From Squalus acanthias (lineage: Eukaryota): 64,000 nucleotides of DNA. Under the pieces are notes generated by a model, which saw nothing but the letters and a program-made list of their open reading frames with translations, searched no databases and was not told the DNA's origin. The stretch is taken from positions 144,152,001 through 144,216,000 of the forward strand of contig CM059431.1 of NCBI GenBank assembly GCA_030390025.1. Direction: 5' to 3'. Of the stretch, positions 10,484-61,782 are shown in pieces. Both the position numbers and the translations under genes were made by a program. Each line of letters starts with the position of its first letter. The first letter of the stretch is position 1.

Positions 10484-10562
10484 ATGTATAGACCACTCGG
10501 TGCCCCGGTGATAAAATCCGCTTACTCAATAACTGGCGTTAGTTACAGTCACTTAATAAACA
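10484..10562 (-). promoter_or_regulatory. Conserved GPCR-family promoter motif with degenerate TATA (TATACAT)
   Basis: Minus strand TTTATTAAGTGACTGTAACTAACGCCAGTTAT; GTAACTAA starts at 10546, TATA position 10490 (56 nt), the same spacing as at the other four loci. Confidence 0.65.
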
Positions 10563-10654: not shown

Positions 10655-13322
10655 CATTACTGATGTTGACTCTACTCTAACATTACTGGTGGTGACCCTA
10701 CTGTAACATTACTGGTGGTGACACTACTTTAAGATTACTGGAGGTGAGCCTACTCTAATATTATTGGTGGTGACACTACTTTAAGATTACTGGACGTGAC
10801 CTAATTCTAACATTACTGGTGGTGACTCTACTCTAACATTACTGGTGGTGACTCTACACTAACGTTACTGGTGGTGACGCTAAACAAGCATTAGTGGTGG
10901 AGACCCAACTACATCGTTATTGGTGCTAACCCTACTCTAACATTACTGGTGGTGAACCTCTTCTAACTAAACTGATGATGACATTAATGCAACATTACTT
11001 TTGTTGACTCTACTCTAACAATACTGATGGTGAATATATTCTAAAATTACTGGCGGTGACCCTGCTATAACATTACTGGTGGTGTCCCTACTCTAACATG
11101 ACTAGTGGTGTCTCTACTTTAACATGATTGGTGGTGATTCTACTCTAACATTACTGGTGGTGACCCTACTCTAACATTGCTGGTGGTGACCCCACTCTAA
11201 CATTACTGTTGGTGACTCTACTCTAACATTACTGGTGGTGACCCTACTCTAAGATTACTGGTGGTGACTCTACTCTAACATTACTGGTGGTGACTCTGCT
11301 CTAACGTTACTGGTGGTGACCCAAAACTAACATTACTGGTGGTGACTCTACTATAACATTACTGTTGGTGACCCAAAACTTACATTACTGGTGGTGACTC
11401 TACACTAACATTACTGGTGGTGACCCAAATCTAACATTACCGGTGGTGACTCCACTCTAACATTACTGCTGGAAACCGCACCCTGACATTAATGCTGATG
11501 ACTCGGATTTAACTTTTAAATGTGGGCACGCTACTCTGACATTGCTGATTGTGACCAAACTGTAACATTACTGGTGCTGACTCAACTCTACCATAACTGG
11601 TGGTTACGATACGCTACCATTAATGTGGTGACTCTATTCTAACATTACTGGTGGTGTCCTTACTCTAACATTACTGGTGGTGATCTGACTCTATCATTAC
11701 AGGTTGTGGCGCTACTCTAACATTACTGCTTGTGACTATACCCTAACATTGCTGGGTATGACTCTACCCTCGTATTACTGGTTTTGACCTTACTCTAACA
11801 TTACTGGTGTTGACAATACTCTAGAATTGCTGTTGGTGGCCCTACTATGACATTACTAGGGTTGTGCCTACTCTAACATTACTGGTGTTGATTTTATGTT
11901 AGCGTTAATGTTGGTGTTTCTGCACTAACATTACTGGTGGTGAATCAAATCTAACCTAACTGATGATGACTTTAATGGAACATTACTGGTGCTGACACTA
12001 ATTTAACATTACTGGTGCTGATCATGCTTTAACATTACTGGTGGTGACTCGACTCCAACATTACTGGTGATGAACCTATTCTAACATTACTGATGATGAA
12101 CCTACTCAAGCATTAATGGTGATGATTCTTCTCTAACATAACTGCTGGTGACTCTAATCTAACGTTACTGGTGGTGACTATAAACTAAAATTGGTGGTGG
12201 TGCTCCTACTCTAACTTTATTGTAGGTGACTCTACTCTAATATAAATGGTCGAGATTCTACTCTAACATTACTGGTTGTCGCCCTACTCTAAAATAGCTG
12301 GTTTTGACCCTACTTTCACATTGCTGGTGGTGACACTACTCTAATGATAGAATAGGGTCATCAAGAGTAAAGTTAAATAGAATTCACAAGCAGTAATATT
12401 AGAGTAGAGTCAAAACCAGTAATGTTAGAACAGAATCATCACGAGAAAATTTAGGGCAGATTCACCACCAGTGTAAGTGTAGGGTCACAACCAGTAATGT
12501 TAGTGTCTGGACAACACAAGTAATGTTAGAATAATGCCACCACAAGTAATGTTAGAGTAGAGATACCACCAGTAATGATAGAGTAGAGCCACCAAAAGTA
12601 ATATTACTGTAGAGTCAGCACCAGTAACGGTAGAGTAGGGTCACCGCCTCTAATGTTACAGTCAGGTCAACACCAGTAAAGTTAGATTAGTTTGAACACC
12701 AGTACAAATAGAGTAGGATCACCGCCAGTAATGTTAGAGTAGGGTCACTACTAGTTATGTTAGAGTAGGGTCACCATCAGTAATTTTAGAGAATGTTCGC
12801 CACCTCTAATGTTACAGTCGGGTCAAAACCAGTAAAGTTAGATTAGATTCACCAGCAGTAACAATAGGGTAGGGTCACCACTAGTAATGTTACAATAGAT
12901 TTACGACGAGTAATGTTTGAGTAGGGACACCACCAGTATTGTCAGTGAGAGGTCACCACCAGCAATAAAACAGTAGGCTCTGCACAATTAATGTTAGAAT
13001 AGAATCACCACCAGTAACATTAGAGTAGGGTCACCACCAGTAATATTTGAGTAAGGTCGCCACCAGTAATGTTAGAATAGGGTCACAACTAGTACTGTTA
13101 GAGTAGGCTCACCACCATTAATGTTAGAGAAAGGTCACCACCTGTAATGTTGCAGTCGGGTCAAAACCAGTAAAGTTAGATTATGTTCACCACCAGTAAT
13201 GATAGGGGTGGGGGGGCGGGTCACCACTAGTAATGTTAGAGTAGGATCACTATCAGTAATGTTAGAGTCGGGTAACCACCAGTAATGTTTGAGTAGGGTC
13301 GACACTAGTAATATTAGTGTAG
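10655..13322. repeat. 26-bp satellite (CTACTCTAACATTACTGGTGGTGACC), about 100 degenerate copies, orientation flips at ~12345
   Basis: Period 26 (TGAC at 11161 and 11187). From ~12345 the array reads as the reverse complement (CCAGTAATGTTAGAGTAGGGTCACCA). Confidence 0.95.
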
Positions 13323-13325
13323 AAC

Positions 13326-16619: not shown

Positions 16620-18665
16620 GCACTGTCACATCTAGTGTTAGTGTAGGGGTACCACTAGTACCGGAGGTGCACGATCGGCTCTTTTATAATTTTAGGGTTA
16701 CGACTATTAGGAGAGGTGCACGGTTAGAATTAATGTCAGTGTAGTGACACCAATATGACTATAGGAGCACGACAATATCGAGTGGAAGTTGATCGCACCA
16801 CCAGCACCAGACGTGTCTGGTCATCTCTTGCATAAGTGCAGTGTACCACTAGTACCATAGCAGCACGATCAGCTCTCGTGTAAGTGTAGCGTTCCACCAG
16901 TACCTGAGGAGCCCGGCCAACTGTACAGTAAGAGTAGTGTTCCACGAGTACCTAAGGAGCACGGTCAACTGTAGTGTAAGTGTAGGCTTCCACTAGTACC
17001 CGAGGAGCACGGGCAACTGTAGTGTAAGTGTAGGGTTCCACTAGCACCCGAGGTGCACGGTCAACTGTAGTGTAAGTGTAGGGGTCCACTAGTACCTGAG
17101 GAGCACGGTCAATTGTAGTGTAAGTGTAGGGTTCCAGAAGTACCTGAGGAGCACGGTCAAATGTAGTGTAAGTGTAGGGTTCCACTAGTACCTGAGGAGC
17201 ATGGTCAAATGTAGTGTAAGTGTAGGGTTCCACTAGTACCTGAGGCTCACGGTCAACTGTAGTGTAAGTGTAGCGTTCCACTAGTACCCGAGGAGCACGG
17301 TCAACTGTAGTGTAAGTGTAGCGTTCCACGAGTACCTGCGAAGCACGGTCAACTGTAGTGTAAGTGTAGGGTTCCACTAGTACCTGAGGAGCACGGGCAA
17401 CTGTAGTGTAAGTGTAGCGTTCCACTAGTACCCGAGGAGCACGGTCAACTGTAGTGTAAGTGTAGCGTTCCACGAGTACCTGCGAAGCACGGTCAACTGT
17501 AGTGTAAGTGTAGGGTTCCACTAGTACCTGAGGAGCACGGTCAACTGTAGTGTAAGTGTAGCGTTCCACGAGTACCTGCGGAGCACGGTCAACTGTAGTG
17601 TAAGTGTAGGGTTCCACTAGTACCTGAGGAGCACGGTCAAATGTAGTGTAAGTGTAGCGTTCCACGAGCACCTGAAGAGCACGGTCAACTGTAGTGTAAG
17701 TGTAGGGTTCCAGGAGTACCCGAGGAGCACGGTCAAATGTAGTGTAAGTGTAGAGTTCCAGGAGTACCTGAGGAGCACGGTCAAATGTAGTGTAAGTGTA
17801 GGGTTCCAGGAGTACCTGAGGGGCACGGTCAAATGTAGTGTAAGTGTAGGGTTCCACTAGTACCCGAGGAGCAAGATCAACTGTAGTGTAAGTGTAGGGT
17901 TCCACTAGTACCTGAGGTGCACGTTCAACTGTAGTATAAGTGTAGCGTTCCAGGAGTACCTGTGGAGCACGGTCAGCTGCAGTGTAAGTGTAGGGTTCCA
18001 CTAGTACCTGAGGCTCACGGTCAATTGTAGTGTGAGTGTAGGGTTCCACTAGTACCTGAGGAGCACGGTCAACTGTAGTGTAAGTTTAGGGATCCACTAG
18101 TACCTGAGGAGCACGGTCAACTGTAGTGTAAGTGTAGGGTTCCACGATTACCTGAGGAGCACGTCAACTGTAGTGTAAGTTTAGGGATCCACTAGTACCT
18201 GAGGAGCACGGTCAACTGTAGTGTAAGTGTAGGGTTCCACGATTACCTGAGGAGCACGTCAACTGTAGTGTAAGTGTAGGGTTCCACTAGTATCTGAGGA
18301 GCACGGTTAACAGTAGTGTAAGTGTAGGGTTCCACGAGTACCTGAGGAGCGCGGTCAACTGTAGTTTAAGTGTAGGGTTCCACTAGTACCTGAGCAGCAC
18401 CTTCAACTGTAGTGTAAGTGTAGGGTTCCACTAGTACCTGAGGAGCACGGTGAACACTGGTGCAAGTGTAGCGTACACTAATAACGAAGGATACATCTAG
18501 TTTAAGTGTAGGATTACCACTAGTGCCAGTGGAGCACGTTCACATCTATTTACGTGTAGAGTTACAAGTATTGCAGGAGGAGCACGCTGACTTCTAGTAT
18601 AAGTTACCCACTTAGCGGAGGGGCACGGTCACATCCAGTATAAGTGTAGGGGTAACACCACACTT
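16620..18665. repeat. 48-bp minisatellite (CTAGTACCTGAGGAGCACGGTCAACTGTAGTGTAAGTGTAGGGTTCCA); about 33 homogeneous copies at ~16890-18465 with degenerate flanks
   Basis: 48-bp periodicity is directly visible and produces the 16-aa repeat ORF 16952-18049. Confidence 0.97.
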
Positions 18666-18679
18666 AAACTAGGATGTAA

Positions 18680-20104
18680 CAAGAGGTAGCAAATGTAACA
18701 CCGCTATTCAAGAAAGAATGGAAAGAAAAAACAGGGAACGACTGGTCAGTTAGCCTGACCTACATCGTCGGGAAAATGCTGGAATCCACTATTAAGGAAG
18801 TGGTAACAGGGCACTTAAAAAATTATAATATGATTAGGCAGAGTCAACATGTTTTTATGAAAGGGAAATCGTGATTTACAAATGTATTAGTTATTTGAGG
18901 ATATAACTAACAGGATTGACAAAGGGGAACCAGTGGATGAAGTAGATTTCGATTTTCACAAGGCATTTGATAAGGTGCCACACGAAAGGTTGTTACACTA
19001 GATAAGGGATCATGGGGTTGGGGGTAATATGTTAGCCTGAACAGAGGATTGATTAAAGGAAAGATAACAGACACCAGTTGTAAACGGGACATTTTCAGCT
19101 GGGCAGGCTACTAAGGATCATTGCTGGGGCCTCAGCTATTTGCAATCTATATTAATCGCTTAGATGGATGTAATGTATCCAAGTTTCTGGCGATACAGAA
19201 CTAGGTTGGAAAGTAACATGTGAGGAGGACACACAGAGTGTGCAAAGTGATATAGCCAGTTATAGAGAGTGGGCAAGAACATGGCAGCTGGAGTATAATG
19301 TGGGGAAATGGAAGGTTATTCACTTTGGTAAGAAGCACAGAAAATATTACTATTTTGAAATGGTGAGAAACAATTAAATGTTGGTGTTCAGAGAGATTTA
19401 AGTGTCCTCGTAAAGGAAACAGAGAGAGTTACCATGCAGGCAGAACAAGCAATTAAGAAGGCAAATGGCATGTTGGTCTTTATTCCAAGGGGGGTTGGAG
19501 TACAAGAGTAAGGAAATTTTGCTGTAATTGTACAGGCCTTTGGTGGGAGACCACACCTTGAGCACTGTGTACAGTTGTGATCTCCTTTTCTAAGACAGGA
19601 TACACTGGCATTAGAGGAGGTGCAACAAAGGTTCACTAGATTGATTCCTGGGATGAGACAGTTGTCCTATGAGGAGAGATTGAGTTGATTGGTCCTATAC
19701 TCTCTATAGTTTAGAAGAATGAGAGGTGATCTCATTGAAACATATAATATTCTTAGGGTAGATGCTGAGAGCTTGCTTCCCCTAGCTGGAGAGCCTAGAA
19801 ATATGGGGATAGCCTCAGGATAAGGAGTCGGCCATGTAAGACTGACATGAGGAGAAATGTCTTCCCTCAGAGGATTTTGAATCTTTGGAATTCTCTACTC
19901 CAGAGGGCAGTGAATGCTCAGCCGTTGAGTATATTCAAGGCGGAGATAGATAGATTTTGGACTCTAAGGGAATCAAGGGATATGGGTATCGGGCGGCAAA
20001 GTGGATTTGAGGTCGAATATCAGCCAATATCTTATTGAAAGGCGGGGCAGGCTCGAAGGGCGGTATGGACTACCCCTACTCCTATTTATTATGTTCCTAT
20101 GTTC
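18680..20104 (+). mobile_element. 5'-truncated, degraded CR1 LINE inserted in the satellite field
   Basis: CR1 RT-like sequence (GGCATTTGATAAGGTGCCACAC; AGAAGAATGAGAGGTGATCTCATTGAAAC); tail TATGTTCCTATGTTC at ~20090-20104. Satellite continues on both sides. Confidence 0.9.
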
Positions 20105-20772
20105 TAGTGTACTATCATTCGAAGAGCACAATCAGCTGTGTTATAATGTTAGGGGTGCAACTGATACTGGAGGTGCACGGTCAACGCTAGTGTTAGTGCA
20201 GCGATACGACTATTACTGTAGGAGCACGCTCAACTGTAGTGTAAGTTTAGGGGTACTACTAGTACAAGAGGAGCACGGTCACAACTAGTGCAACTGCAGA
20301 GCACCGCTAATAGCAGAGGGACAAGGTTACCTCTAGTGTAAGTTCAGGGATACTATGAATACACGAGGAACATGGTCAGCTCTAGTGTAATTGCAAAGCA
20401 CCGCTAATAGCGGAGCGGCACGGTAACCACAAGTTCAAATGCAGGTATACTTCTAGTACCGGTGGAGAACGGTCATCCCTAGTGTAAGTGTACGGGCACC
20501 ACTTGTGCAGGTCGAGCACACGCACATGTAGTGTAATTGCAAGGTTAGCATTAGTACTTGAGCAGCACGGTCAATACTAGTGTCAGTGTAGTGCTACCAC
20601 TATTACCATTGGACCACATTGAACTCTACTGTAAGTGTAGGGTGCCAGAACGACAGCAGGAGCATGGTCATCTTTAGCGTAAGTGTAGAGTACCACTATA
20701 CCAGAGAAGACGGTTACCTCTAGTGTAAGTGTCGGCTACCACTATACCGGAGGAGACAGCCACCTCTAGTGC
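20105..20772. repeat. Degenerate continuation of the 48-bp satellite
   Basis: Recurring GAGCACGGTCA..CTAGTGTAAGTGTAG motifs at ~48-50 bp spacing. Confidence 0.85.
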
Positions 20773-21046
20773 GGACTGACTGTGCTCATCACCAGTATTG
20801 AAGGATTTGTTTCACCGCCTGTTCTGAAGGAGTTGGTGCACTAGGTGAATCATGGGCAGGATCAGGACGAATATTGCAAGGTGAGCTACCTTCATCACGC
20901 CTGTAGGAATAGAGTCAGAGCTAGTACTGGAAGATTTCACTTTCCACTTGTAAACAATGTTTCAATTTTTTAACTTTACTATAATAATTTCACCTATTTC
21001 TCTTAATCTGACGTATCAGACAAGAAAAACAACTTACCTGAGTCTA

Positions 21047-21125
21047 TTTGTTAAATGACTGTAACTAATGCTAATTATGATTTAACCTGATTGACACCTT
21101 GGAGGATTGAAGTGAGTATAAATAT
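21047..21125 (+). promoter_or_regulatory. Putative GPCR promoter: conserved motif plus TATA box
   Basis: TTTGTTAAATGACTGTAACTAATGCTAATTAT; GTAACTAA at 21061, TATAAAT at 21117, 87 nt before the ATG. Confidence 0.7.
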
Positions 21126-21203
21126 AGGTTCCCTTACATTGCTTCAGCCCTGCGCCAGTCAGAGTCTTTCATCTCCTGCAGAATTCATCCATTCTCACAG
21201 AAA

Positions 21204-22624
21204 ATGGGTCAACAAACTATTTTGCTAATCAAAGAGAGTTACTACCCGATCCTCGCAGCTGTCGGTGTCCCCGGTGAGCCATTGTAACCTGTTTGTTGTT
21301 AATCGGCGTTAACTGTCTCCTCTTCATACAGCCTGTTGGCTAATGTAACGTGATTTCTAGATGTCAACATTCCACAGTCGGTAGTAACTGGAACCAACTA
21401 ATGAACCGGGTGTCCGCACTTTCCAAGTTTCCCTTAATTCGATAATATCACTGATGTTACAATGTTCTTTGGAGCTCCAACACAAGGATTTTAGCTGATT
21501 TCCGGACCGTCTTGTCCCCCCGTGCAGAGTGAGCGCTGCAGCAGCTCATTAAAATGTGTGGGTGGGTTTCCCAGGTAATGGCTCCAAAACTAACCTGTTC
21601 TCACACTGCTCCGTGTAGATAATCACACTGAATGGAGCAAAATGCTCTCAACAGTTTTCTCCATATATATTTCAAAACAGACACTGGAAATTTATTTCTC
21701 TCCTCTCTGTTTCTTACAGCGAATTTGGTGACAATGGTGATTCTGTCCCTAGGAAACTGCAGACTTTCCAAGTGTATCTCTGTCTACATGGTGGCCATGG
21801 CAACAGCAGATCTACTGGTCATGATCTTCAATGTAATGATGTATTATATATTCAGTTATCACTTTCCACTTTCATTCCTGTCCCACACTCCCGTGTGTAA
21901 GTTCATTCTATACATGACTGCTGTCACCATCGATTTGTCTGTTTGGTTCACCGTTTCATTCACATTTGACCGATTTGTAGTTATCTGCTGCCAGAAGTTT
22001 AGAACAAAGTATTGCACCGAGAAAACTGCGGCCGGGGTTATAGCAAACGTCTCGATCCTAATTTTTTTAAAGGACATCCCCGTATTGTTTGCATTTGAAC
22101 CTGAACAAATAATTAACAAGGTGCAGTGGGGCTGCCGGAATAGTGTGGCTTTTTTTTCCTCATCTCCTGGTGTAGCGTACGTCTGGTTTTATTCTGCCTC
22201 GGTCGTTTGTATTCCCTTTACATTAATTATCTTATTTAATAGTTTGACAGTCAGCCGTATTTTAGTGGCAAGTAGAGCCCGCAGGGGACTCCGGGGCCAC
22301 AGTAGTGAAAATCAGAGCGATCCAGAGATGGAGAACCGAAGGAAATCCATCATTTTACTGTTCACTGTATCGGGCAGTTTTATATTGTTGTGGCTGACAA
22401 CTGCCGTGAGTTTTGTAACTACCAGACTGACAAACACGACTTATTACCGAGGTGACCGCACAGACCCTGCATATATCGCCACTGAAACCGGAGCAATGCT
22501 GAAGCATTTGAGCTCCTGTCTAAACCCGTGTATTTATGCAGCGACCCAGAGGAAATTCAGAGAAGAGCTGAAGAATGTTGTGAAATCTCCCTGGACACTG
22601 ATTCTGAGATTAGCTGGAAAATGA
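21204..22624 (+). CDS. Intact orphan class-A GPCR, GPR139/GPR142-like, 324 aa; exon 1 21204-21273, exon 2 21720-22624
   Basis: Exon 1 MGQQTILLIKESYYPILAAVGVP, phase-1 GT-AG intron of 446 bp (CCG|GTGAGC..TTCTTACAG|CG), then ANLVTMVIL. Motifs: TM2 MATADLLV, PVCKF, FTFDRFVVICC, ECL2 WGC, RRKSIILLF, SCLNPCIY and a helix-8-like RKFREELK. Confidence 0.93.
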
Positions 22625-23299
22625 GGATGAAAAGAATCAAGTCAAACGAGATCTTCCTCGTAAGTAAAGCTCAATTTCAACTCCTTTTCAATCGTAGACA
22701 ATCCTTCTTTCTGGTAATGTGAAAAATGGGTGAGTTATTGTGTAAACATTTCTTCCATTTTGCAGCATGCATTGATTTCTGCTTTGCTTTCTTTTTCTAC
22801 GCTTCTTTCGTTGAATAAACATAACCTATTCCTGCAACTTTAGCACATTTCACCTTCAGGGATCAAAGATAACAATGATGAGGTTCAGCAGTGGAGTCGG
22901 ACATGTGGGTAATAGAGGAATCCACGTTACACTGCAGGATCGGGCGCGCCACTTTAAAATCATCAATAAAGTTTTATTTAGTGCCTTAACGATCAAAGGT
23001 CTTGCGATCCCCGATATTGGTAACTGTGCTGGAAGTTTCGTGTGAATAATTCAGGCACGGGTTTCTCTATCGGACTCCATTCCTCATTGACAAATAAAGC
23101 GGGCTCTTGTCCCGTGATCAGTGTTCGAATGGAGGAAACAGTTCGTAACTCGGCTCATCGAAGTGAACTTTCACCTATTTTGCCCCAGAAACAGACGTAA
23201 ATTCTCGATTGTACACTGACTGGTGTCTCTCACTCAGCACAAAGATGGAGTCTGCTCTTGTTTTGTGCTGCCGATAAAAGTATCATGAGTAATATTATT

Positions 23300-24070
23300 G
23301 ATATTCTGACACATGGGCCGCATATACCGAAACCTACGGGCGTGTACGGGCTGTGCACACACGTAGGGGCATCGGAAATGCCGATTTTCAGGCATGCGAA
23401 GCGCATGCGCTGAAAACCGGCTTTTTCGATCTGTCAAGATTGCTCTGGACAGATCGGACGCCTGCCCTGGAGAAGGGAGTCTGCGGGCCGATAGTTCCGC
23501 TTTCAGGAGCACCTCCGCCCGCAGAAAACCCTTACAAGTCTTACACCTGGTAAAAGCAGGCATAAGGCCTGCCTTTACCAGCATAAGCGCTGGAAAAAAG
23601 TAAAAAACAAAAATTTTCTTCACTCATTTATAATTTAAAATACTTTTTTTTTAAAAAGTAAGTTTATTTTTAGCCCGTAAATAACTTACTTATTTTTTTA
23701 ATTAAACTGTTGTTTAAAATATGTAATTTATTGTAATTTCAACTAATTTTAAAAAGGTGATGGTTTTTAAATTTATTTAAAGTTTCACTATGTTTTTGGG
23801 GTGATCTCCATTCATACTTTTGACAGGTCTATTTGTCAAGTGTACGAAGGGAGATTCCCTTCTTCTATTGGCTCCCCATGGCCCACGTGATCCCAGGGAC
23901 ACTTGCAAACTGCCTGCGCCTATGTGATATGTGGGACCTGCGCATTTCGACTGTGGAGAGACCCAGAAGCGTAGGTAGAGGCGTCTGGGGAGCCCTCAGG
24001 GAAGTTCGTAATTTTCTCCAGATCGGAGGCCTCCGCACGCGGGAAGCCTCCAATCGGAAAATGCGGCCCA
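23300..24070. repeat. Unclassified interspersed repeat with GC-rich flanks and AT-rich core, copy A
   Basis: Shares ordered blocks with 26500-27190: TTTAC(C/A)AGCATAAG, TTCACTCATTTATAATTTAAAA, GTAAGTTTATTTTTAGCCC, CATTCATACTT, CCCACGTGAT(C/T)CCAGGG. Confidence 0.6.
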
Positions 24071-24379
24071 TTCTCTCTCAATCAGTCTCCCAAACAAAAC
24101 GGTAAAGGAATGTAAAAATTAATGTTTATTCATGAAGTTATTAACTATTACATTTGATGCAAGTTATCGGTAAAAAAGCAACCTTGAAATAAATTCTGAT
24201 AAAATGAACTGATATAAAATATTCTTTGTTTGACTGAACATGTGCAGACGGTCAGAAAAAATCTTGGTTCATTAACGTTTTATTATGCGGTTACACATTT
24301 TTTCAAATAATATCTGAAAAATACCAGCAACTTTGAATCAGTTACAAATTGTTCATCGGCGATCTCGCCTGATTGTGCG

Positions 24380-24975
24380 AGAAACGCCAAGGAATGCGAG
24401 CAGAATATCAATGGGAAGGAGCTGAAGGGTGTGGATGAACTGCGAGCGATAGGGTTCCAAATAATCAATTCCGGAAAGGTGGATGAGAAAACAAGCAGAA
24501 ATGTGTGTTTTTCGATATGGGCTTAGATCACAAGAATAAACAGGAGATGATGAATCTTTACAAAATGCTGGTGAGTTCACCGTTAGAACACCAGCTACAG
24601 TTTCGGACCCTCATTGAGGAAAGGCCATTAACTCCACTGAGAGCGGGCAGTGTAGATAAACTAGTTTGGTGCCATGGATCAGAACTATACTGAAAATAAG
24701 GGACAAGATATTGGGATTATTTGCACTGGAGCAGTGAAAGCTAAGAGGAGTTTTAATACAGAATTTAAACATTTTGAACAGTTTAGCAGAGTGAAGAGGG
24801 AGAGCACATTCCATCTAGTTGAGGAGCTGGCAATAAAGGGTGATCGACTTTAAATGTTCACAAAGGGAATGAGCAGACTGGTTAGCACAAACTTCTCTAT
24901 GCAAAGGTTTGCTGGAGACCGAATGTTTGCTTCAGGCAATAGTTAAGGGAAAGTTAGAACAATATTGAAGCAGAG
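24380..24975 (+). mobile_element. Old, degraded CR1 3' ORF2 fragment
   Basis: Peptide remnants such as NGKELKGVDELRAIG and MMNLYKMLVSSPLEHQLQF resemble the CR1 ORF2 C-terminus. Confidence 0.6.
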
Positions 24976-25229
24976 AAAATAAATGTCTGTGGATGACATT
25001 GCAGATAGTTTCTGATTGTTGTATCAAATAATCCACTACAGAGAGAATGGGTCACATGACCTACTCCCGCCCAGTAAGTGTGTATGGTTTTATCGAGTTA
25101 CTTACGTTGGTATCATTTTCATTGTTTTCTTTCTAAGATACCTTCATCTTCGTTGTGATTCTATTAACCAAAACATTAAAAATAAATTGGTACCAAGGAA
25201 GATCCCAATAGTCACCCGTCCCTTACAGG

Positions 25230-25900
25230 TTCCCAATTGTCGATAACCTACTTTCATTTTGTAATTAGCTGTCTGTGCAGTGCCAGATCTCCCACCCATC
25301 CCATAATTCCTCACCGTTTGTAGATGCGGGACCTTGTCCGCTGCTTCGTTAAAATCAGACTGGGTCATTCCAACTGAATCTCCCCTGCCCGACAGGCCAG
25401 TGATGTGTTTCAGAAACTCCAGCAGGTTAGTTAAAGATGACACATCGTCACTCAAACTAATACAATTCCCTTTTACATTGCTCCTCTCCCAGGTGCTCAC
25501 CCACTGGATTTCTCCTGGCCTTATTTTAACCACTGGGATTATTTCAGCCGCTGTTGGATCCTCAGGAATATTCTCTAATTGAGGAAACTTGCAACATTGT
25601 CAGTGAAGCGGCACTCCTGCAAGTCCCCATTCCTCGATCTCGCGGTGTCTGGGTCTCTGGATTTCAGAATCCAATGTTCTGTGGTTGAACACTGTAACTA
25701 CATTTAAAAAAAAAACCTGCTCGCTGCCTCTCATACAAACCTTCCATTGATTCACTTGTGATCTACTCCAAATATTTACCAAGCGATCATTGCTGCTCTT
25801 TACTTTCTACCTTCTGGATTCGTTGGATAATTGAAAAGGTTTTTCTTAATCCTTGATATTGCTCCTGAATAATGAATCGTACCCACGGTGCCTCCTATTC
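25230..25900 (-). mobile_element. Old, degraded CR1 RT fragment
   Basis: Minus-strand SSLTNLLEFLKHIT..GDSVG..SDFNEAADKVPH. Confidence 0.65.
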
Positions 25901-26119
25901 TCTTTTAATACATTAAAATTCCACACTCATTAACACTTTCTTAATTACTTTCTGCTTGTCTACTCCAGCGCTGGGATCTCCCAGACCTGCCCCACGGTCG
26001 GAGTCTCACTCGCACAGCGGGCGGATTGTCGGAAAATGATGGAAGCGCTTCCTCAGCTTTCATTCCATTCACATTAAAGGGCGGAAGATCGCGGGCAACA
26101 CAAGCGGTAGAGATTCAGA

Positions 26120-26270
26120 AAACACATAAGGAGGCCATTCGGCCTATCATGCCTCTCCCGGCTCTATGAAATAGGAATCCAATTAGTCCAACTCCCCTGC
26201 TATTTCCCCACTGCCCAGCAACCCTTTCCTTTTCAAGTATATATCCAATTCCTTTTTAAATTTGCTATTT
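26120..26270 (-). mobile_element. CR1-type 3' tail fragment
   Basis: GGAGGCCATTCGGCCTATCATG..CCAATTAGTCCAACTCCCCTGC is the reverse complement of a CR1 3' UTR. Confidence 0.6.
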
Positions 26271-26277
26271 TTTAAAA

Positions 26278-26475
26278 ATGTGAGCAGTGGCTCTGCGGTA
26301 GCACTCTCGCCTCTGCATCAGATGGCAATGCGTTAATGTCCCGCTCCAGAGACTTAAACACAAAATCTATGCTGACACCTCAATGCAGTACTGAGTGTGT
26401 GCTGCACTGTCGGAGGTGCGGTCTTTCGGATGGAACGTCAAACCGAGGCACCGTCAGCCCTCAAAGGAGGACCCG
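26278..26475 (+). mobile_element. DeuSINE 5' half
   Basis: GGTAGCACTCTCGCCTCTG..CTGCACTGTCGGAGGTGCGGTCTTTCGGATGGAACGTCAAACCGAGGC, homologous to 8278-8683. Confidence 0.7.
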
Positions 26476-26499
26476 GAACATGCGGTCTTTCAAGAATTC

Positions 26500-27190
26500 T
26501 CTTTGCAGATTCCCCGCATCCCCGGGAAAATGACCTCCGCGGGGCGAGAGTTGCGCTATTAACCGAACCTCCGCCCGCTGAATGCCCGTGAAATTCTTAA
26601 GCCTGGTAAAAGCAGGCAAAATACTTTCCGTACCTTCCGGAACTCCAGGTAAATTCGGAGGCATCTGCCATAATGTTTGCTTTTACAAGCATAAGAGGTT
26701 TAAAATTAGAAAAAAAATTCACTCATTTATAATTTAAAAAGCCTGTCTAATAAGGTAAGTTTATTTTTAGCCCCGTTAAAACAAATAATATTTTTTTAAA
26801 TTTAGTTAAAAAAAATATTTAATTAAATGGGATTTTAATTAATTTTAAATATGTATTTTTTATTATTTCATTTGTTCGTGATTTTTTTAAGTGGTCCCCA
26901 TTCATACTTATGGGGATTCCGTACGTACGTCACGCCCATAAGTATGAATGGCGATCCCTTCTTTTATTGGTTGGGCCGACCCACGTGATTCCAGGGCGCT
27001 TGTTAACCGCATGCCCCCCTGGGAAATGTGGGCCTCTACCCGCGCGGACCCGGAGAGGCCCAGGATCGCAAGTCTTCCGCTCTATGAAGAACCATCCCAG
27101 CTTCCGGCCATGTCCAACATTTTCAGGCCTTTCACTTGCTGTGGGCGAGGGCCCGCCCGAGACCTCACATCCGGGACACTCCAGTCATAA
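26500..27190. repeat. Unclassified interspersed repeat, copy B (related to 23300-24070)
   Basis: Same ordered blocks as copy A; it abuts the truncated DeuSINE. Confidence 0.6.
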
Positions 27191-29279
27191 ATTGAACTTT
27201 CTCTTGCTCAGTATAGAAGATTATTCTTTGTTATGTATAATCAACAATTTAAGAATCAGCAAAGCATATTTTAAATATGTTAACAAATTCCCCTTTCAAA
27301 GGATGCAACATTTCCTTTAACAATTTTGTCGAATCGCTGTTAATATCAATTCACCGATCAGTGTTTAAAAGCTGAAAACAGAATAAGATTAATACTTCAT
27401 TAATGCAAAGTGGAGCTGCCTCCGTCAGTTGATTTGTCCGACTCTTCCCGCTCTCCTTCCCATCATGGCCCCGCTCTCCTGTATTCCACACTCTACCAGA
27501 TCCCAGTCCCACGGGTTCCCGCACTCTGCCAGATCCCAGTCCCACGGGTTCAAACACTCTGCCAGTTCCCGCTCTCCCCTTTGTTCGAGAATGGCCCCTC
27601 CAATGTCAAAGGGATAGAATTCCAATTAAATCTATTATTGTTGTCACGAGAAGTGTTGGGATTATCTCATTTGGACTGTGTGGACAATTCTGGCAACCTA
27701 ATCATAAAATGGAAATTTCTGCACTGTATAGTTCACACGGCTCAGTCCCAGAGATTCCAGGGATTCACAATTCCAGTTTTGAAGCAATTATAGAAAATCC
27801 TGTTTTCTATCTTTAGAAAAGAGGAAACCTCCAGGTGATCTAATGTCAGTTTTATTGTTAGGAGTAGAATGCACAAATTACTCAAATGTGAAATTAAGAG
27901 ATAGACGGGAAGCCGGGCGGAACATTTCAGCTCACTGGGTAACTGTATTCTGTATGTTATTTACTGAATTACCAGGAGGGTCATTCGGCACAAACCTATT
28001 TATCTGCTTCTGAAATTGACAACTATTTTATCGAAAGTTTATCACATGACAAATATGACCTTCTGTAAACAAACTGCAAAATCCATGTGCTGCATAACAC
28101 AGGAAAAGGTAAACTGATGAACTTCAATCTGAGGAGTTTAGCAATCAAGATATACAACGAAGAAAGCAAGAGAATTATCTTGAAAGAAGGGAAGATTATC
28201 AAAATGTGCACCTTTAAGTGGAATACTCCTGACATTGCATATACTGCAGTTTAGGAGGCAATACAGGAGCTCTATTATTTAACGTTTATTTGTTAAGTTG
28301 TCGATTTATCTTAATCATCCTCATAGTTATTAATGGGATAATCTGCGGTGCCTGTCCCTACTGTAACAAATCAAAAGCTGGCAACCCAGTTATATGCACT
28401 ATATTAAAGTACACACAGAGGAATTTTGTCGGGTTGTGTTGAAGGGGCCCTGCACAGCATCAAATGCACGGAATCTCCAATGTTGTGAATCCAAGTATTT
28501 CCCCACGTCCTGGAGATCCCATTGTTGGAAAGCTTCATTTTATTATCCTGAAATATATATGGTGAGGAAGAAGATGAATCCTTCATTCACTCCTTTACCT
28601 TCTCACTAATAATTGGATTAAAGAGGAGTAGGGGCGGGGTTATGCTGTATTGTAGAATTAAGTGTTAAACGGACTGAGCTGCACTACTACGCTGCTGCAT
28701 TATGGGAGTTGTAGTCCACCCGTGACAGAGACTAAAACTGAACTGGTGCATTATGGGAGACCGGTACTGGGCGAGCTTCTTGATTCTGAAAATTGAGCAA
28801 AGTATAAGAAACCGGCTCCAGAAAGAGATGCACGGTTGGGGTGAAACTCCAGCAGGCATTTCTCACAGATAAATGCTGATAAACAACTAATTATTAGTTT
28901 GAATTCCAATTTTAAATGATTTTTATGAATTTATTACATTTACTAATGCTTGGCTATAGTGCGGGTTGCGCTTCAATTGAACCACTAGCAATAATTTTAA
29001 AAAAAGTTAAAATTTTCTGATTAATTCAAATGTCTCTTAAAGGAAATGACCCTTACTTAACTGTTAGTGCTAATTGGTGAGAAATGCCTCGCGGAGGGTT
29101 CACGTGAATTCGTGCATTTTTCTGCAGTCTGAGCTCTTCAATCTGAGCCCACATCTCCCAAAGTTAGTTCAGGATTCCATATCTGCTCCCAAGAATCGGT
29201 ATCTCCGCTTTCCTACTGCAGCATTTGTTAAATTTACACACTACACTGCGACTGACTACGGACAATGGCACGGGGATCA

Positions 29280-29530
29280 TACAATCATAGAATCCTCGAA
29301 TTATACAGTACAGAAGGAAACCATTTGGCACATTGTGCCTGTTCCGACTCTTTGAAAGAGATAATCCATTAGTCCCACTCCTCTGCTACTTATTTTATTT
29401 TAATTTATTTTTCCTATTGTCCCCGCTGGTTTTTGTGTCAATTACCTTAAATCTGTGTCCTCTGTTTACCGAACAGTCTGCCCCAAGAAACTAATTCGTC
29501 GAATTTCCTTTATCAAAACCATTCCTAATT
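29280..29530 (-). mobile_element. CR1-type 3' tail fragment
   Basis: ATCATAGAATC..ACAGAAGGAAACCATTTGGC..GACTCTTTGAAAGAG..TTAGTCCCACTCC. Confidence 0.55.
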
Positions 29531-29614
29531 TGAATTCAGTTTGGTGCTCCACTGAATTATTTACCTAACATTTATCTTAAGCTTCCTTTTTTTCTGTTTT
29601 CAATTCTAAATTCA

Positions 29615-30560
29615 ATTTTGGCTTCAATGTTGCTAACAGGTCTATCATGCAGTACTTTCTCAAATGCGCTTTGAAAGTCCATATACACAGCATCAACTGT
29701 ACTACCCTCTTCAACCCTCTCAGTTACTTCATCAAAGGACTCGATCAACTTAGTAAAACCTGATTCCCCAATAAAAAGTCCGTGCTGGCTTTCATTGATT
29801 AAACAACATATTCCAAGTGCCAATTAAGATTCTGTCGGATTATTGTCTCTAAATGTTTCCGCGCGACGTTAGGTTGACTGGCCGGTAGTTGTCAGGTTTA
29901 TCCCTCTCCCCTTTTTGGACCGGGGTGTAATATTTCCAATCCACCACTATTCTGGCAGCACTCTGATATCTATGAGGATTGGAAAAATTTGTGACTCCAG
30001 AGCTTCTGTAATTTCAACCCTTACTTCCCTCAGCTACCCAGTACACAGCCCAGTTGGACCGGGTAACCTTTCTACATTGAGCGCTTCCAATCTTTCAATT
30101 AACTCCTCGTTATTTATGTTTTTCCTTTCCAATTTCTCTACTGTCGCCTCCTCTACTGTGACATTGACAGCATCTTTTTCTTTAGTGAAGACACATGCAA
30201 AATATTCATTTAATATCTAAGCCACGCTCCCTGCCTGCACAAGAAATTCTCCATTCTGGTCTGTAATTGACCCCGTCCTTGAGAGTGCCACACTCCCGGA
30301 GGATCCCTGCACCACCTGCCTCTTCGCACCCTGCCCATGGACACCAACTTACTATCCTCCTGAACTCACTGCGCCTGCGGGTTGTCCATCTCCTGGAATA
30401 TGTGGTCGAGCAAATTCTCAGCCCTGCAGCGACTCCAGCCGCTCCTCAAGCTCAGAAACACTGAGCAAAATGTTCGAGCAGATGGAGGCACTTCTTGGAC
30501 ATGTGATTATCATGGCCAGGTGAAGCGCCCTGGAGTTCCAACATGTCGCAGGCATTTCCA
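29615..30560 (-). mobile_element. Internally deleted CR1: ORF1 remnant (~30270-30560) joined to an RT remnant
   Basis: RT piece LINESQHGLFIGESGFTKLIESFDEVTERVEEGSTVDAVYMDFQSAFEKVLH. The upstream piece reads DNHMSKKCLHL..LEERLESLQ, resembling the CR1 ORF1 zinc-finger/leucine-zipper region. Confidence 0.72.
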
Positions 30561-32367
30561 CTGTTGTTATCAATGTAAATTGCAGCATCTAAATTCCACA
30601 GTGACAGAAATCACGATGGAAGCTTAAAGAGAGTTTGCAAATAAAATAACATTAAATTAAATTAAACGAAATATATTAAACCAAATTAAATTGAAATAAA
30701 TGAAATTCAATTAAATTACATACATTACTTTAAAATGAAATCCAGTGTGCTATATGGCACTTTAGGCATTATTGTACATGGTTGTTGCCAGGAACAGAAT
30801 TACTGTCCGATGTGCCCTGTCCAGTGATATTTGTTCCAATTCTCGTGTTGTTTGCTTGTAGAGTTGTAGAGTGAACTCATATCGTGGGGCTGACGGGCTT
30901 GGTGTTTGGTTATACTCCCCTAATTTGTTGGTCCGGAGGAATTCCGGGACTGGGGAAAATGACATCTGGTCACTGAGAAAGACCAAGCATTCTCACACAG
31001 ACACTGAACGGCGGCAGCATTCCCTGTTCTCAGACAATCAGACTGTGACCTCACTTCCTGCGGCCCATCGAGAAGAGCGCCATAGTCTGCAGTACAGAGT
31101 TCCGACTGACGAGGACGCGTTTCAAAGGTAAATCTGATTCGTCACACTTCTGACACTAACAGCCAATGGGTGCAGCGCTCAGCCGATTCTGTGACGTACC
31201 ACCGATTATGTTCAGGTGATGGTGTATCATTCACTCCTTGCAGTTTGTTTGTTTAGCAGTTTCACTTTACTTCCGTAGTTCAAGGATAACAAATACATCG
31301 CTAATATTTATGCTTACTTTTGTTTGCGATGATTAGAATTGTGGACATGAGCTCTGGGTATTGATTTAATTCCCTTTAATATAACGCAAAATATATTAGA
31401 TTCCAGCTGAGAAAAAGATCCAATTACATTCTTCTAGCATTGAGTGAAACAAGAGGCAGATTAGGATGTTAAGGGCGTCCGTCAGACTCAGGAGGGAACC
31501 GTGTAATCCTTCACTAACAGTCGACAGCCACAGAATTCTCTGCACTGTCATACAAGCACACCCAACGCGAGCATCGTGTTGCGACTTATAGATACACACT
31601 GGAGAGCTTCGCGTGAGTTACACGCCAAATATACCAGTCTTTCTTTCGACACGATTATGCAATGCATTTGTATTGAACATTTAAATCTGTTACTGCCTCT
31701 AAGAATTTAAGAGAGACTAGTTTTCATCTACAAGAACTAAAAGCTGACCCACAATTCAAGTACTGCCACTCCCCAACTGACTCTGATAGTACAGTGTCTT
31801 GAAACAATAGGCGGCTGCTTCAATAGTGTCGGTATTTTATCAATTAGTATTCGAAAAGCAGGAAACAGGTCAATCATTCCGTGATTTGACTAAACTTTCC
31901 TCCACTTTAGTGAATTCTGCCGATTGACAGTTGCATATTTTACACCCGCTCCAATTTCGTTTCCATTACAGTCACTACAAAGAGAAATTGGGCGGGGTGT
32001 ATGACTGGCGGACAGTCCGCTCCAGCTAGATTTCCGCCCAGGCTGAAATTGAAAATGATCATCGTTTCAGAATATTCAGATTCCACTGAACCCAAATGGA
32101 CATAAATACAACTTTTCAACTTATGTATAAAACAGCTTAAATTTGGGACACTGAATTGCTCCTTACAACTAGTTCTGGAGATTTGGCTGGAAATAATGAA
32201 TTTGAGGTGAAATTGTCCACGTGCGCGTCGGCTAAACGGGCGGCGTGACTTCGATCACCTGTTACACACTCGGCCAGATATTCAGTTCCATTCAGCGCAA
32301 CTTTAGGCGGTACCTATAACAGGCGGCGATATGATTTTCCAGTACTGCCCAGACGAATTTCCAGCCA

Positions 32368-35414: not shown

Positions 35415-35494
35415 TTTGTTAAATGATTGTAACTAATACCAATTATGAGTTAATTTGATTAACTCCCTGACGGATTGATGTGTGGATAAATATA
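35415..35494 (+). promoter_or_regulatory. Putative GPCR promoter: conserved motif plus TATA-like GATAAATATA
   Basis: TTTGTTAAATGATTGTAACTAATACCAATTAT; GTAACTAA at 35429, GATAAAT at 35485 (56 nt). Confidence 0.68.
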
Positions 35495-35571: not shown

Positions 35572-36983
35572 ATGGGGCGACCAGCTTTTCTGCTGATAAA
35601 AGAGATTTACTACCCGATTCTCGCAGCTTTCGGTGTCCCCGGTGAGCCATTGTAACCTGTTTGTTGTTAATCGATGTTAACTGTATCACTGTTCATGTCG
35701 CATGTTGGATATGGTAACTTTTTTACAGGTGTCAGCATGACACAGTGAACCACGTGTCCTCACTTTCCCAGTTGCTCTTGATATGATAACATTGCTGATG
35801 TTACAATCTTCTTTGTAGCTCCAACACAAGGATTTTAGCGGATTTCCGGACCGTCTTGTCACCCCGTGCAGAGTGAGCGCCGCAGGAGCTCATTACAATG
35901 TGTGGGTGGGTTTCCCAGGTAATGGCTCCAATACTAATCCTGTTCTCACACTGCTCCGTGTTGATAATCACACTGAATGGAGCAAAATGCGCTCAACAGA
36001 GATCTCCATATATATTTCAATCAGACACTGGAACATTATTTGTCTCCTCTCTGTTTCTTACAGCGAACTTGGTGACAATCGTGATTCTCTCCCGAGGAAA
36101 CTGCGGCCTTTCCAAGTGTATCTCTATCTACATGGTGGCCATGGCAACAGCAGATCTACTTGTCATAATCTTCAATGTAATAGCGTATTATATTTTCAGT
36201 TATCACTTTCCACTTTCATTCCTGTCCCACACTCCGGTGTGTAAGTTCAATCTATACATGAATGCTGTCACCTTCGATTTGTCTGTTTGGTTCACCGTCT
36301 CCTTCACATTTGACCGATTTGTAGTTATCTGCTGCCAGAAGTTTAAAGTAAAGTATTGCACCGAGAGAACTGCGGCCGCGGTTATAACAGCGTTCACGTT
36401 CCTGGTCTTTTTAAAGGGCATCCCCGTATTGTTTGCATATGAATCTCAGCAAATAATTATCAAGGTGCAGTGGGGCTGCCGGTCAAGTGTAGCTTTTTTT
36501 TCCGCACCTCCAGGGGTAGCGTATCTCTGGTTTCACATCATATGGCTCGTTTGGTTTCCCTTTACGTTAATGGCCTTTTTTAATTGTTTGACAATCAGAC
36601 GTATTTTAATGGCCAGCAGAGCCCGCAGGGGACTCCGGTGTCAGTGCAGTGAGAATCAGTGTGATCCCGAGATGGAGAGCCGCAGGAAATCCATCATTTT
36701 GCTCTTTGCTATATCGGGCAGTTTTATATTGCTGTGGCTGACAGCTGCCGTGAGTTTTGTAATTACCAGACTCACAAACCCCAATTATTACCGCGGCGAC
36801 CTCACGAACCCAGCCTATATCGCCACTGAAACCGGAGCCATGCTGAGGCTTTTGAGTTCCTGTCCGAACACGTGTATTTATGCAGCTACCCAGAGGAAAT
36901 TCAGAGAAGAGCTGAAGAAGGTGCTGAAATCTCCCTGGACACTGATTCTAAGATTGGTTAAACATGAAAGAAAGCCGAACTAG
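35572..36983 (+). CDS. Intact orphan class-A GPCR, GPR139/GPR142-like, 329 aa; exon 1 35572-35641, exon 2 36064-36983; in the palindrome spacer
   Basis: Exon 1 MGRPAFLLIKEIYYPILAAFGVP, phase-1 GT-AG intron of 422 bp, then ANLVTIVILSRGNCGLSKCIS. Motifs ATADLLV, FTFDRFVVICC, WGC, RRKSIILLF, SCPNTCIY; no internal stop. Confidence 0.93.
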
Positions 36984-50572: not shown

Positions 50573-51979
50573 TCACAGAATCAGTGTCCAGGGAGATTTC
50601 ACAACATTCTTCAGCTCTTCTCTGAATTTCCTCTGGGTCGCTGCATAAATACACGGGTTTAGACAGGAGCTCAAATGCTTCAGCATTGCTCCGCTTTCAG
50701 TGGCGATATATCCAGGGTCTGTGCGGTCACCTCGGTAATAAGTCGTGTTTGTCAGTCTGGTAGTTACAAAACTCACGGCAGTTGTGAGCCACAACAATAT
50801 AAAACTGCCCGATAAAGTGAACAGTAAAATGATGGATTTCCTTCTGATCTCCATCTCTGGATCGCTCTGATTTTCACTCCTGTGGCCCCGGAGTCCCCTG
50901 CAGGCTCTACTTGCCACTAAAATACGGCTGACTGTCAAACTATTACATAAGACAATTAATGTAAAGGGAATACAAACGACCGAGGCAGAATAAAACCAGA
51001 CATACGCTACACCAGGAGGTGAGGAAAAAAAAGCCCCACTATTCCGGCAGCCCCACTGCACCTTGTTAATTATTTGTTCCGGTTCAAATGCAAACAATAC
51101 GGGGATGTCCTTTAAAAAAATTAGGATCGAGACGTTTGTTATAACCGCGGCCGCAGTTCTCTCGGTGCAATACTTTGTTCTAAACTTCTGGCAGCAGATA
51201 ACGACAAATCGGTCAAATGTGAAGGAGACGGTGAACCAAACAGACAAATCGATGGTGACAGCAGTCATGTATAGAATGAACTTACACACGGGAGTGTGGG
51301 ACAGGAATGAAAGTGGAAAGTGATAACTGAATATATAATACATCATTACATTGAAGATCATGACCAGTAGATCTGCTGTTGTCATGGCCACCATGTAGAC
51401 AGAGATACACTTGGAAAGTCCGCAGTTTCCTAAGGAGAGAATCACCATTGTCACCAAATTCGCTGTAAGAAACAGAGAGGAGAGAAATAAATTTCCAGTG
51501 TCTGTTTTGAAATATATATGGAGAAAACTGTTGAGAGCATTTTGCTCCATTCAGTGTGATTATCTACACGGAGCAGTGTGAGAACAGGATTAGTATTGGA
51601 GCCATTACCTGGGAAACCCACCCCCACATTTTAATTAGCTGCTGCAGCGCTCACTCTGCACGGGGGGACAAGACGGTCCGGAAATCCGCTAAAATCCTTG
51701 TGTTGGAGCTCCAAAGAACATTGTAACATCAGTGATATTATCGAATTAAGGGAAACTTGGAAAGTGCGGACACCCGGTTCATTAGTTGGTTCCAGTTACT
51801 ACGGACTGTGTAATGTTGACATCTAGAAATCACGTTACATTAGGCAACAGGCTGCATGAAGAGGAGACAGTTAACCCCGATTAACAACAAACAGGTTACA
51901 ATGGCTCACCGGGGACACCGACAGCTGCGAGGATCGGGTAGTAACTCTCCTTGATTAGCAATATAGTTTATTGACCCAT
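50573..51979 (-). pseudogene. GPR139/GPR142-like GPCR, mirror copy of 21204-22624, with nonsense mutations (exon 1 51979-51910, exon 2 51462-50573)
   Basis: Exon 1 reads ATG GGT CAA TAA (stop at codon 4, plus-strand 51968-51970; CAA in the left copy). A second AGA-to-TGA change at 50573-50575 removes the last 5 aa. Splice sites are intact and exon 2 is otherwise open. Confidence 0.85.
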
Positions 51980-52057: not shown

Positions 52058-52136
52058 ATATTTATACTCACTTCAATCCTCGAATGTGTCAATCAGGTTA
52101 AATCATAATTAGCATTAGTTACTGTCATTTAACAAA
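52058..52136 (-). promoter_or_regulatory. Putative GPCR promoter: conserved motif plus TATA
   Basis: Minus strand TTTGTTAAATGACAGTAACTAATGCTAATTAT; core starts at 52122, TATAAAT at 52066 (56 nt). Confidence 0.68.
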
Positions 52137-52409: not shown

Positions 52410-53078
52410 CGCACTAGAGGTGGCCGTCTCCTCCGGTATAGTGGTAGCCTACACTTACACTAGAGGTAACCGTCTTCTCTGGTATAGTGGTACTCTACAT
52501 TTACGCTAAAGATGACCATGCTCCTGCTGTTGTTCTGGCACCCTACACTTACAGTAGAGTTCAATGTGGTCCAATGGTAATAGTGGTAGCACTACACTGA
52601 CACTAGTATTGACCGTGCTGCTCAAGTACTAATGCTAACCTTGCAATTACACTAGATGTGCGTGTGCTCGACCTGCACAAGTGGTGCCCGTACACTTACA
52701 CTAGGGATGACCGTTCTCCACCGGTACTAGAAGTATACCTGCATTTGAACTTGTGGTTACCGTGCCGCTCCGCTATTAGCGGTGCTTTGCAATTACACTA
52801 GAGGTGACCATGTTCCTCGTGCACTCATAGTATCTCTGAACTTACACTAGAGGTAACCTTGTCCCTTTGCTATTAGCGGTGCTCTGCAGTTGCACTAGTT
52901 GTGACCGTGCTCCTCTTGTACTAGTAGTACCCCTAAACCTACACTAGAGTTGAGCGTGTTCCTACAGTAATAGTCGTATCGCTGCAATAACACTAGCGTT
53001 GACCGTGCACCTCCAGTATCAGTTGCACCCCTAACATTATAATAGAGCTGATTGTGCTCTTCCAATGATAGCACACTA
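52410..53078. repeat. Degenerate 48-bp satellite (mirror of 20105-20772)
   Basis: Recurring TACACTTACACTAG and TGACCGTGCTC motifs. Confidence 0.85.
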
Positions 53079-61705: not shown

Positions 61706-61782
61706 TTTGTTAAGTGTCTGTAACTAACGCCAGTTATTGTGTAAGCGGATTTTCTCACCGGGGCACCGCGTGGTCTATAAAT
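61706..61782 (+). promoter_or_regulatory. Putative GPCR promoter: conserved motif plus TATA
   Basis: TTTGTTAAGTGTCTGTAACTAACGCCAGTTAT; GTAACTAA at 61720, TATAAAT at 61776 (56 nt). Confidence 0.65.

Follow-up and report, generated by a model that had tools for sequence, protein, structure and literature searches.

A block of 32 nucleotides lies upstream of each of five receptor gene loci in the 64,000-nucleotide stretch of shark DNA analysed here (the window), and it is likely to be a functional promoter element. The fuller statement, that it is a family-wide proximal promoter element which derives from the common ancestor of the subfamilies and has been kept by purifying selection, is probable though held a little less firmly. 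As judged from the sequence, the element is real and old, and it probably functions as a promoter element of a very large orphan shark receptor family.

The 32-letter pattern was found without mismatch at the five positions given in Table 1, and scanning the window with up to three mismatches gave no further match. Shuffled controls contained a match in 0/100 cases. A profile made from the five sites scored those sites at 45–49 bits and the next-best site in the window at 7.4 bits. Within the window the motif is thus upstream of 5/5 gene loci, as the sequence-only reading had claimed, and is absent elsewhere, hence not a word common away from the genes. A candidate second copy of the motif in the distal 5' region was rejected (16–17/32 identity, profile score 6.4). 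Metagenome scans with a 27-letter pattern of the motif gave 0 matches, and those with the receptor protein gave 416 pattern matches with 0 confirmed. Since the pattern was drawn from these same five loci, the fair test of its conservation is the comparison of inner with distal genes made below.

Table 1. Coordinates of the motif, TATA-like box, exons and satellite arrays in the window.
Feature	Locus	Position	Strand	Remarks
Motif	A21	21047..21078	+	weaker extension to 21092; palindrome TAAT-N4-ATTA 21066-21077
Motif	B35	35415..35446	+	palindrome 35434-35445
Motif	A52	52105..52136	-	A52 is the inverted duplicate of A21
Motif	C10 (distal)	10529..10560	-	palindrome TAAC-N4-GTTA 10541-10530
Motif	C61 (distal)	61706..61737	+	palindrome 61725-61736
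Box TATAAATA	A21	21117..21124	+	56 nt after anchor G 21061
Box GATAAATA	B35	35485..35492	+	non-canonical; equals majority form in contigs
Box TATAAATA	A52	52059..52066	-	
Box TATACATG	C10	10483..10490	-	non-canonical
Box TATAAATG	C61	61776..61783	+	TCAG with A at 61803, 27 nt on
Initiator-like TCAG	A21	21144..21147	+	predicted start A21146, 29 nt after box
Exon 1, coding part	A21	21204..21273	+	23 codons + 1 nt, phase-1 donor
Exon 2	A21	21720..22624	+	open 7tm_1 frame; 'probable GPR139'-like shark family
Exon 1, coding part	B35	35572..35641	+	
Exon 2	B35	36064..36983	+	open 7tm_1 frame
Exon 1	A52	51910..51979	-	TAA at codon 4
Exon 2	A52	50573..51462	-	open; 5 residues shorter than that of A21
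Exon 1, coding part	C10	10140..10194	-	18 codons + 1 nt
Exon 2 remnant	C10	8103..8119	-	only first six codons (VNLVAI)
Exon 1, coding part	C61	62072..62126	+	
48-bp tandem array	upstream of A21	20165..20771	.	related to 26-bp satellite
48/49-bp array	upstream of A52	52412..53013	.	
26-bp satellite arrays	upstream of C10	10648..13322	.	
26-bp satellite arrays	upstream of C61	58562..61617	.	

The five loci are two-exon shark 'GPR139-like' GPCR genes, in which a phase-1 intron separates a short coding exon 1 from a long exon 2. Rhodopsin-family receptors (7tm_1) are encoded by the open frames at 21.7, 36.0 and 51.5 kb. They fall into three types: the twins A21 and A52, the gene B35 (83% identical to type A) and the twins C10 and C61; types A and B are referred to as inner and type C as distal. 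An inverted duplication fills most of the window (17933–34692 against 55248–38602, 92% identity) and a second inverted pair relates 8438–13323 to 63841–58846 at 86% identity. The region 8438–63841 has the layout of a nested inverted duplication, with outer arms at 86%, inner arms at 92% and B35 single between the arms. A52 is a probable pseudogene given the stop at codon 4 of its exon 1. C10 is a truncated pseudogene because the body of exon 2 is absent; at about 8070–8100 on the minus strand a short frame following VNLVAI ends in LVKIMKV-stop and resembles a receptor C-terminus, and the sequence suggests that exon 2 was lost through one large internal deletion. No exon 2 of C61 was found up to the end of the window. 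Both broken copies are young, C10 being 86% identical to C61 and A52 92% identical to A21. A 94-nt stretch downstream of C10 occurs in two copies (7181–7274 and 7919–8012, 77% identical); its translation resembles the mis-annotated tail of the Heptranchias protein P0064, and it may be a family-associated 3' element.

Besides the satellite arrays in Table 1, further stretches of the 48-bp array were observed at 16833–18471 and 54704–55049. Comparison of the 48-bp with the 26-bp satellite showed that they are related (p 0.001). The Heptranchias gene model P0014 has a false N-terminus that is the translation of a similar 48-bp array, so the array precedes such genes in another shark too.

Between inner and distal genes the motif is identical at 26–27 of 32 positions in all four pairs (binomial p 4e-12 for 27/32). 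The same comparison gives 9–12/32 for the upstream flank, 16–17/38 for the spacer between motif and box, 5–7/8 for the box and 5–8/32 downstream of the box, with 27/32 in the motif set against 12/32 and 5/32 in the flanks. Columns invariant at all five loci number 23/32 in the motif, 7/14 in the stretch that follows it, 5/24 in the rest of the spacer and 5/8 in the box, as against 6/32 upstream and 4/32 downstream of the box, so that the alignment bears out the conservation of the motif above its flanks. The motif is also kept better between inner and distal genes than the coding end of exon 1 with its donor (76–79% over 38 nt). Introns 21274–21719 and 35642–36063, of A21 and B35, were observed to be 88% identical outside gaps and the upstream regions 75%; many 32-nt bins of this intron reach 29–32/32, and its first 60 nt are common to the distal loci at 72%. 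With 29/32 identities between A21 and B35 the motif is no better conserved than such bins, and the signal therefore comes from one deep comparison. Three independent sequence types had been counted previously; these reduce to the single comparison of inner with distal, since the genes at 21 kb and 35 kb share 83% identity over 1.9 kb. It had also been stated that the distal loci share little other flanking sequence with the inner genes. This cannot be maintained, as the two sets share, at 72–79%, the 3' part of exon 1 with its donor and some 60 nt of the intron, the spacer aligns in register and both have satellite-like DNA upstream in matching orientation.

The depth of this comparison was gauged from the proteins. 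Among 268 relatives screened that had an alignable junction, the distal exon 1 peptide best matched the P0176 subfamily, which has the same 18-residue exon length, and the start of P0176 exon 2 also matches the distal locus. P0176 comes from the catshark and matches A21 exon 2 at 42% identity; the catshark also has A-like members, at 75% identity, among the best 120 of 1605 relatives. The likely relatives of the distal subfamily thus share only about 42% protein identity with the inner gene, and the motif would have outlasted a deep protein divergence. If the 18-residue assignment is right, we infer that the motif is older than the split of both subfamilies and of these shark lineages.

The anchor G of the motif had been placed exactly 56 nt from the box at each locus, and all five pairs of positions (21061/21117, 35429/35485, 52122/52066, 10546/10490 and 61720/61776) were confirmed. 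The spacer aligned best at shift 0 of 17 shifts in 4/4 inner–distal pairs (16–17/38, p 0.008–0.02) and the 56 nt thus reflect true homology in register. Paralogue pairs in the window show 0.04–0.10 indel events per substitution, from which 1.6–4.0 events are expected in 38 nt, and the chance of no net indel in the spacer is about 0.08–0.27. The divergence used here is a lower bound and a constraint on spacing is therefore plausible. The exact 56-nt spacing may be under selection, a proposition to which we give slightly less than even credence.

The box at +56 had been called a TATA box, which is correct in the canonical sense for three of the five loci. The TATA consensus is TATAWAWR, and a strict match is present at A21, A52 and C61. 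B35 and C10 are non-canonical, and in most inner-type contigs the box starts with G. This G replaces the T at 21117 in 10, 20, 17 and 12 contigs of the four runs described below (77–91% of contig depth), and the usual inner-type box is therefore GATAAATA. Between motif and ATG the inner loci have no TATA-like word other than the +56 box. The word TCAG follows the box at 5/5 loci, with its A at +29 in types A and B (three loci) or +27 in type C (two loci), and it marks a start predicted from sequence only (21146, 35514 and 61803, plus or minus 3, in A21, B35 and C61). In the distal genes 296 nt separate the box from the ATG, and this interval holds three upstream ATGs and an AATAAA; further TATA-like words occur at +134, +170 and +177 (and at +230 in C61) and the predicted leader is 269 nt long. 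Given these features of the distal leader, the true distal start may lie elsewhere. The +56 box is likely to be a core element, a reading that is weaker at the distal loci. Erythroid promoters can carry a GATA-factor box, WGATAR, in place of TATA; this candidate was rejected, as WGATAR is found at +56 in 0/5 loci and the 35-kb locus reads GGATAA.

Contigs of four of 23 runs (X3, X7, X15 and X16, from organisms A, C, I and J) aligned to 20861–21340 at 80% likeness, a threshold that favours similar, gap-poor copies. The numbers aligned in the four runs were 144, 191, 144 and 152. The element was present upstream of exon 1 in contigs from all four organisms. No substitution falls in the motif (21047–21078) among the 40 listed of 207, and no indel falls in 21025–21175 among the 12 listed of 16. 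The substitutions listed mostly mark departures of A21 itself, since 15/15 majority letters checked equal B35. Among the 32 pieces listed of 640, 19 span both the anchor G and the box; six of these (from X3, X15 and X16) are gap-free, so the 56 nt are kept in them, and the other 13 have gaps whose positions are not given. As exceptions, two X3 contigs, read from a loose end, show a 1-nt shortening just after 21073 and one X16 contig has lost the box. Three X16 contigs align to 21081–21095 and again from 21168–21200, leaving the box region unaligned, a pattern suggesting that distant copies lose the box before the motif. In inner-type genes the whole 350-nt promoter–exon block is conserved, often gap-free; as the gap-free pieces often run through exon 1 too, rigidity is not special to the spacer in these genes. 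Summed contig depth forms a peak over the motif in X7, X15 and X16 (2.1–8.1 times three comparison bins), whereas in X3 the depth over the motif is below that over the box (0.8). Depth cannot rank the parts of a gene, and this peak was not counted as evidence.

Some contigs showed further features. The alignments frequently start close to 21025. In one X7 contig 21087 is joined to 21047 through 7 extra letters, so that the start of the motif recurs; this may be a tandem motif duplication of 48-nt period. Four X16 contigs with a loose end behind 21081 match the motif, and the letters after it resemble, by eye, the distal-type spacer; these are possibly distal-subfamily promoters in organism J.

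It had been proposed that motif and spacing are both selectively kept. For the motif, selective retention is supported by its conservation above the flanks and its presence in four organisms. For the spacing, retention is no more than plausible, given the chance of 0.08–0.27 above and the exceptions among the contigs.

The motif had further been described as a composite homeodomain, POU or forkhead-type site. The homeodomain part of this fits, because the cores kept at 5/5 loci are TAAY half-sites, arranged as RTTA-N8-TAAC, TAACTAAY and TAAY-N4-RTTA; POU and forkhead fit less well. Candidate sites were judged by consensus words, and the reading is given at the level of factor class. The arms of TAAY-N4-RTTA read TAAT..ATTA in types A and B and TAAC..GTTA in type C, a symmetric difference that would fit a dimer on a palindrome, though it is one event of two substitutions and could be chance. 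The POU octamer, ATGCAAAT, was found at 0/5 loci (ATGCWAAT at 2/5) and the HNF1 site, GTTAATNATTAAC, likewise at 0/5; both were rejected. The O/E (EBF) site is known by the words YYYCARRRR and TCCCNNGGGA and was rejected with 1/5 and 0/5 loci respectively within -120..+100. The forkhead site is TRTTTRY, and a word of this form lies at the 5' edge of the motif (-16) at 4/5 loci, being absent at 61.7 kb. The fixed spacing of two TAAY half-sites recalls cooperative homeodomain dimer sites. A paired-like dimer site with a 3-nt spacer was nevertheless rejected, as the spacer is 4 nt at 5/5 loci, with the 3-nt form only at +22 of the 35-kb locus, and the distal lineage has TAAC instead of TAAT. In HT-SELEX data, as far as presented in the part of PMC10325903 available, paired-like palindromes are 3 bp apart, GSX has 7 bp and only BSX has a 4-bp spacer; the comparison with BSX made here covers spacer length. 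If the motif is functional, a homeodomain-class reader is moderately probable. An observation upstream of the motif is the antisense splice-donor-like word CTTRCCT, at -28 in A21 (21033–21039), B35 and A52 and at -23 in C61; it may represent a further element or serve as the donor of a divergent transcript.

A mechanism may be put forward on this basis. The motif would lie ~70–100 nt upstream of the predicted start site, and its cluster of TAAY half-sites would be read by one or more homeodomain-class factors, probably binding as a dimer on the palindrome TAAY-N4-RTTA. Such factors would help TFIID to load on a weak core, which in most inner-type copies is GATAAATA. It is proposed that, if factors are needed at a weak core, the paralogues would depend on one cell-type-specific activator and be co-regulated.

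Other explanations have to be weighed against this. The upstream element may be functional without the +56 box being a working TATA, particularly at the distal loci, in which case the 56 nt would be merely inherited. The G that most contigs of the four runs have as first box base, the distal TATA-like words with a 269-nt predicted UTR containing three ATGs and AATAAA, and the appreciable chance of unchanged spacing all favour this, as does the statement in PMC7279448, made with regard to polymerase III, that GATAAA is not bound by TBP alone. It is difficult to reconcile, however, with the lack of any other TATA-like word between motif and ATG at the inner loci, with the 5/8 invariant columns in the box compared to 5/24 in the adjacent spacer and with TCAG 27–29 nt after the box at 5/5 loci, and we consider it unlikely. 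The motif might, alternatively, be leftover homology or a short tract of gene conversion and have no function itself. A counterpoint to the promoter reading is indeed that two of the five loci are broken genes and keep the motif. All loci also descend from one cassette of satellite, motif, box and exon 1, the inner-type 350-nt block is conserved throughout with the A21–B35 motif (29/32) no better than the intron (29–32/32), and gene conversion has been proposed for V1R promoters (PMC1955453, in the part available). Residual homology does not explain why 27/32 positions are kept beside flanks near background in subfamilies probably ~42% identical in protein, or why the motif exceeds the coding end and donor of exon 1; the broken copies, moreover, are young (86% and 92% identity to their twins). 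This explanation is judged quite improbable.

ACTAAY is a branch-point or QKI/SF1-type word, and its invariance at 5/5 loci would fit a signal at the RNA level, in a longer transcript starting further upstream; the antisense donor-like CTTRCCT at -28 in three loci and -23 in one could be taken the same way. An intron branch point was rejected, though, on the position of AG and on pyrimidine content. No AG is conserved after the putative branch A (the first lies 35, 12, 35, 5 and 5 nt on) and the pyrimidine content is 0.50–0.57 compared to 0.73–0.80 at three real acceptors. No hairpin is common to the loci, no Rfam match reached the gathering score and the conserved 5' half of the motif would be left unexplained, making an RNA-level signal very improbable. 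Least credible of all is an origin in the neighbouring satellite, with the motif as its founder or a remnant unit, or a role of the motif in duplicating or recombining the cassette. Satellite-like DNA, oriented alike at 5/5 loci, does end ~90–130 nt before the anchor, and one X7 contig may carry a duplicated motif at the joint 21087 to 21047, but the motif did not match the 26-bp or 48-bp consensus above shuffles (p 0.17–0.52, 8/8 tests) and the duplication breakpoints in the window are not at the motif. A promoter element thus remains the preferred reading.

The receptor family is large. At E<=1e-10 its relatives form 1605 clusters at 90% identity, and the best 120 of these are all from sharks, at 52–81% identity, and mostly named 'probable G-protein coupled receptor 139', a RefSeq label. 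The nearest solved relative is a GPR139 chain at E 1e-8, barely above adenosine receptors. One-to-one orthology with GPR139 was rejected on similarity values, this E value standing against hundreds of closer shark paralogues; GPR139 is the nearest named receptor and the shark family is both distant from it and hugely expanded. Family members were found in sharks and a ray, and the more distant relatives, from 10 of 150 listed proteins looked up, come from ray, salamanders, coelacanth and teleosts. Four low-copy relatives from salamanders, coelacanth and teleosts (P0217, P0226, P0232 and P0254, 26–34% identity) were noted; these may be an outgroup of the shark expansion and are possibly the GPR210 orphans of PMC6504862, a source available in part. 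GPR139/GPR142 and the related orphan sets GPR210A/B are described in the accessible text of PMC6504862 and PMC12208981, and GPR139 responds to L-Trp and L-Phe (PMC12208981).

Promoter motifs common to expanded GPCR families have precedents in the V1R (PMC1955453, PMC3247230) and OR (PMC3247239) genes, as far as the accessible parts of these papers go. Mouse V1R genes are likewise expanded, clustered GPCR genes whose promoters are kept within subfamilies and share short motifs near the start across them; in the part of PMC1955453 available, cross-subfamily homology is invisible by alignment and strict spacing was not found. Here, by contrast, a 32–46 nt block aligns gap-free across subfamilies in register with a TATA-like box. 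Expression of V1R genes in sensory neurons is known, whereas the shark family is known here from sequence alone. OR promoters, as described in the same partial sources, likewise combine AT-rich cores of the TAAT type with a TATA-like box and serve a large class A GPCR family; they differ in their O/E or EBF site (1/5 loci here) and in having short sites with no long fixed block. Odorant-receptor identity itself was rejected, the genes being GPR139-like. The element is thus of a known kind, that of OR and V1R promoter motifs, and looks longer and more rigid than in the V1R case.

Fixed-distance family promoter elements include the immunoglobulin V octamer–TATA pair, the MHC SXY module and the protocadherin conserved sequence element. 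Each resembles the present case in having one upstream element per paralogue at a set distance from the core promoter and differs from it in sequence; the octamer is at 0/5 loci here. No paper on the expansion or promoter of the shark family was found in a search that was thin in subscription papers and supplements. The gene cluster did not come up under the terms searched in the main text of bioRxiv 10.1101/2025.06.08.657570 or in the accessible part of PMC10620051, and in that of PMC12294341 GPR139 is named only in a reference.

A more speculative possibility, to which we attach a low probability, is that these genes form a fifth large chemoreceptor family, so far unrecognised, which expanded in sharks and rays from the amino-acid-sensor branch of GPR139/142, with the 32–46 nt block as a receptor-choice promoter signature. 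A homeodomain dimer element of fixed geometry and a deliberately weak GATAAA core would then make many paralogues compete for one activator. The catshark has small olfactory repertoires, given as 2 ORs, 3 ORAs, 3 TAARs and about 32 V2Rs in the part of PMC11979771 available. Together with the amino-acid response of GPR139, this makes a chemosensory role attractive, and the chemoreceptor reading, if true, would help to explain how sharks get by with such small OR, ORA, TAAR and V2R repertoires. Immune, gut or gonadal expression is just as conceivable as sensory expression.

The conservation of so long an element across subfamilies of ~42% identity implies a common regulator for the paralogues and probably a common cell type. 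In automatic gene models several relatives have spurious N-termini, and the motif is a probe for the promoters and first exons that such models often miss. It is also a DNA bait for the factor, and thence for the tissue and the likely job of the family. The motif is probably a shared switch that would turn the genes of this family on in one cell type, as in smell-receptor genes.
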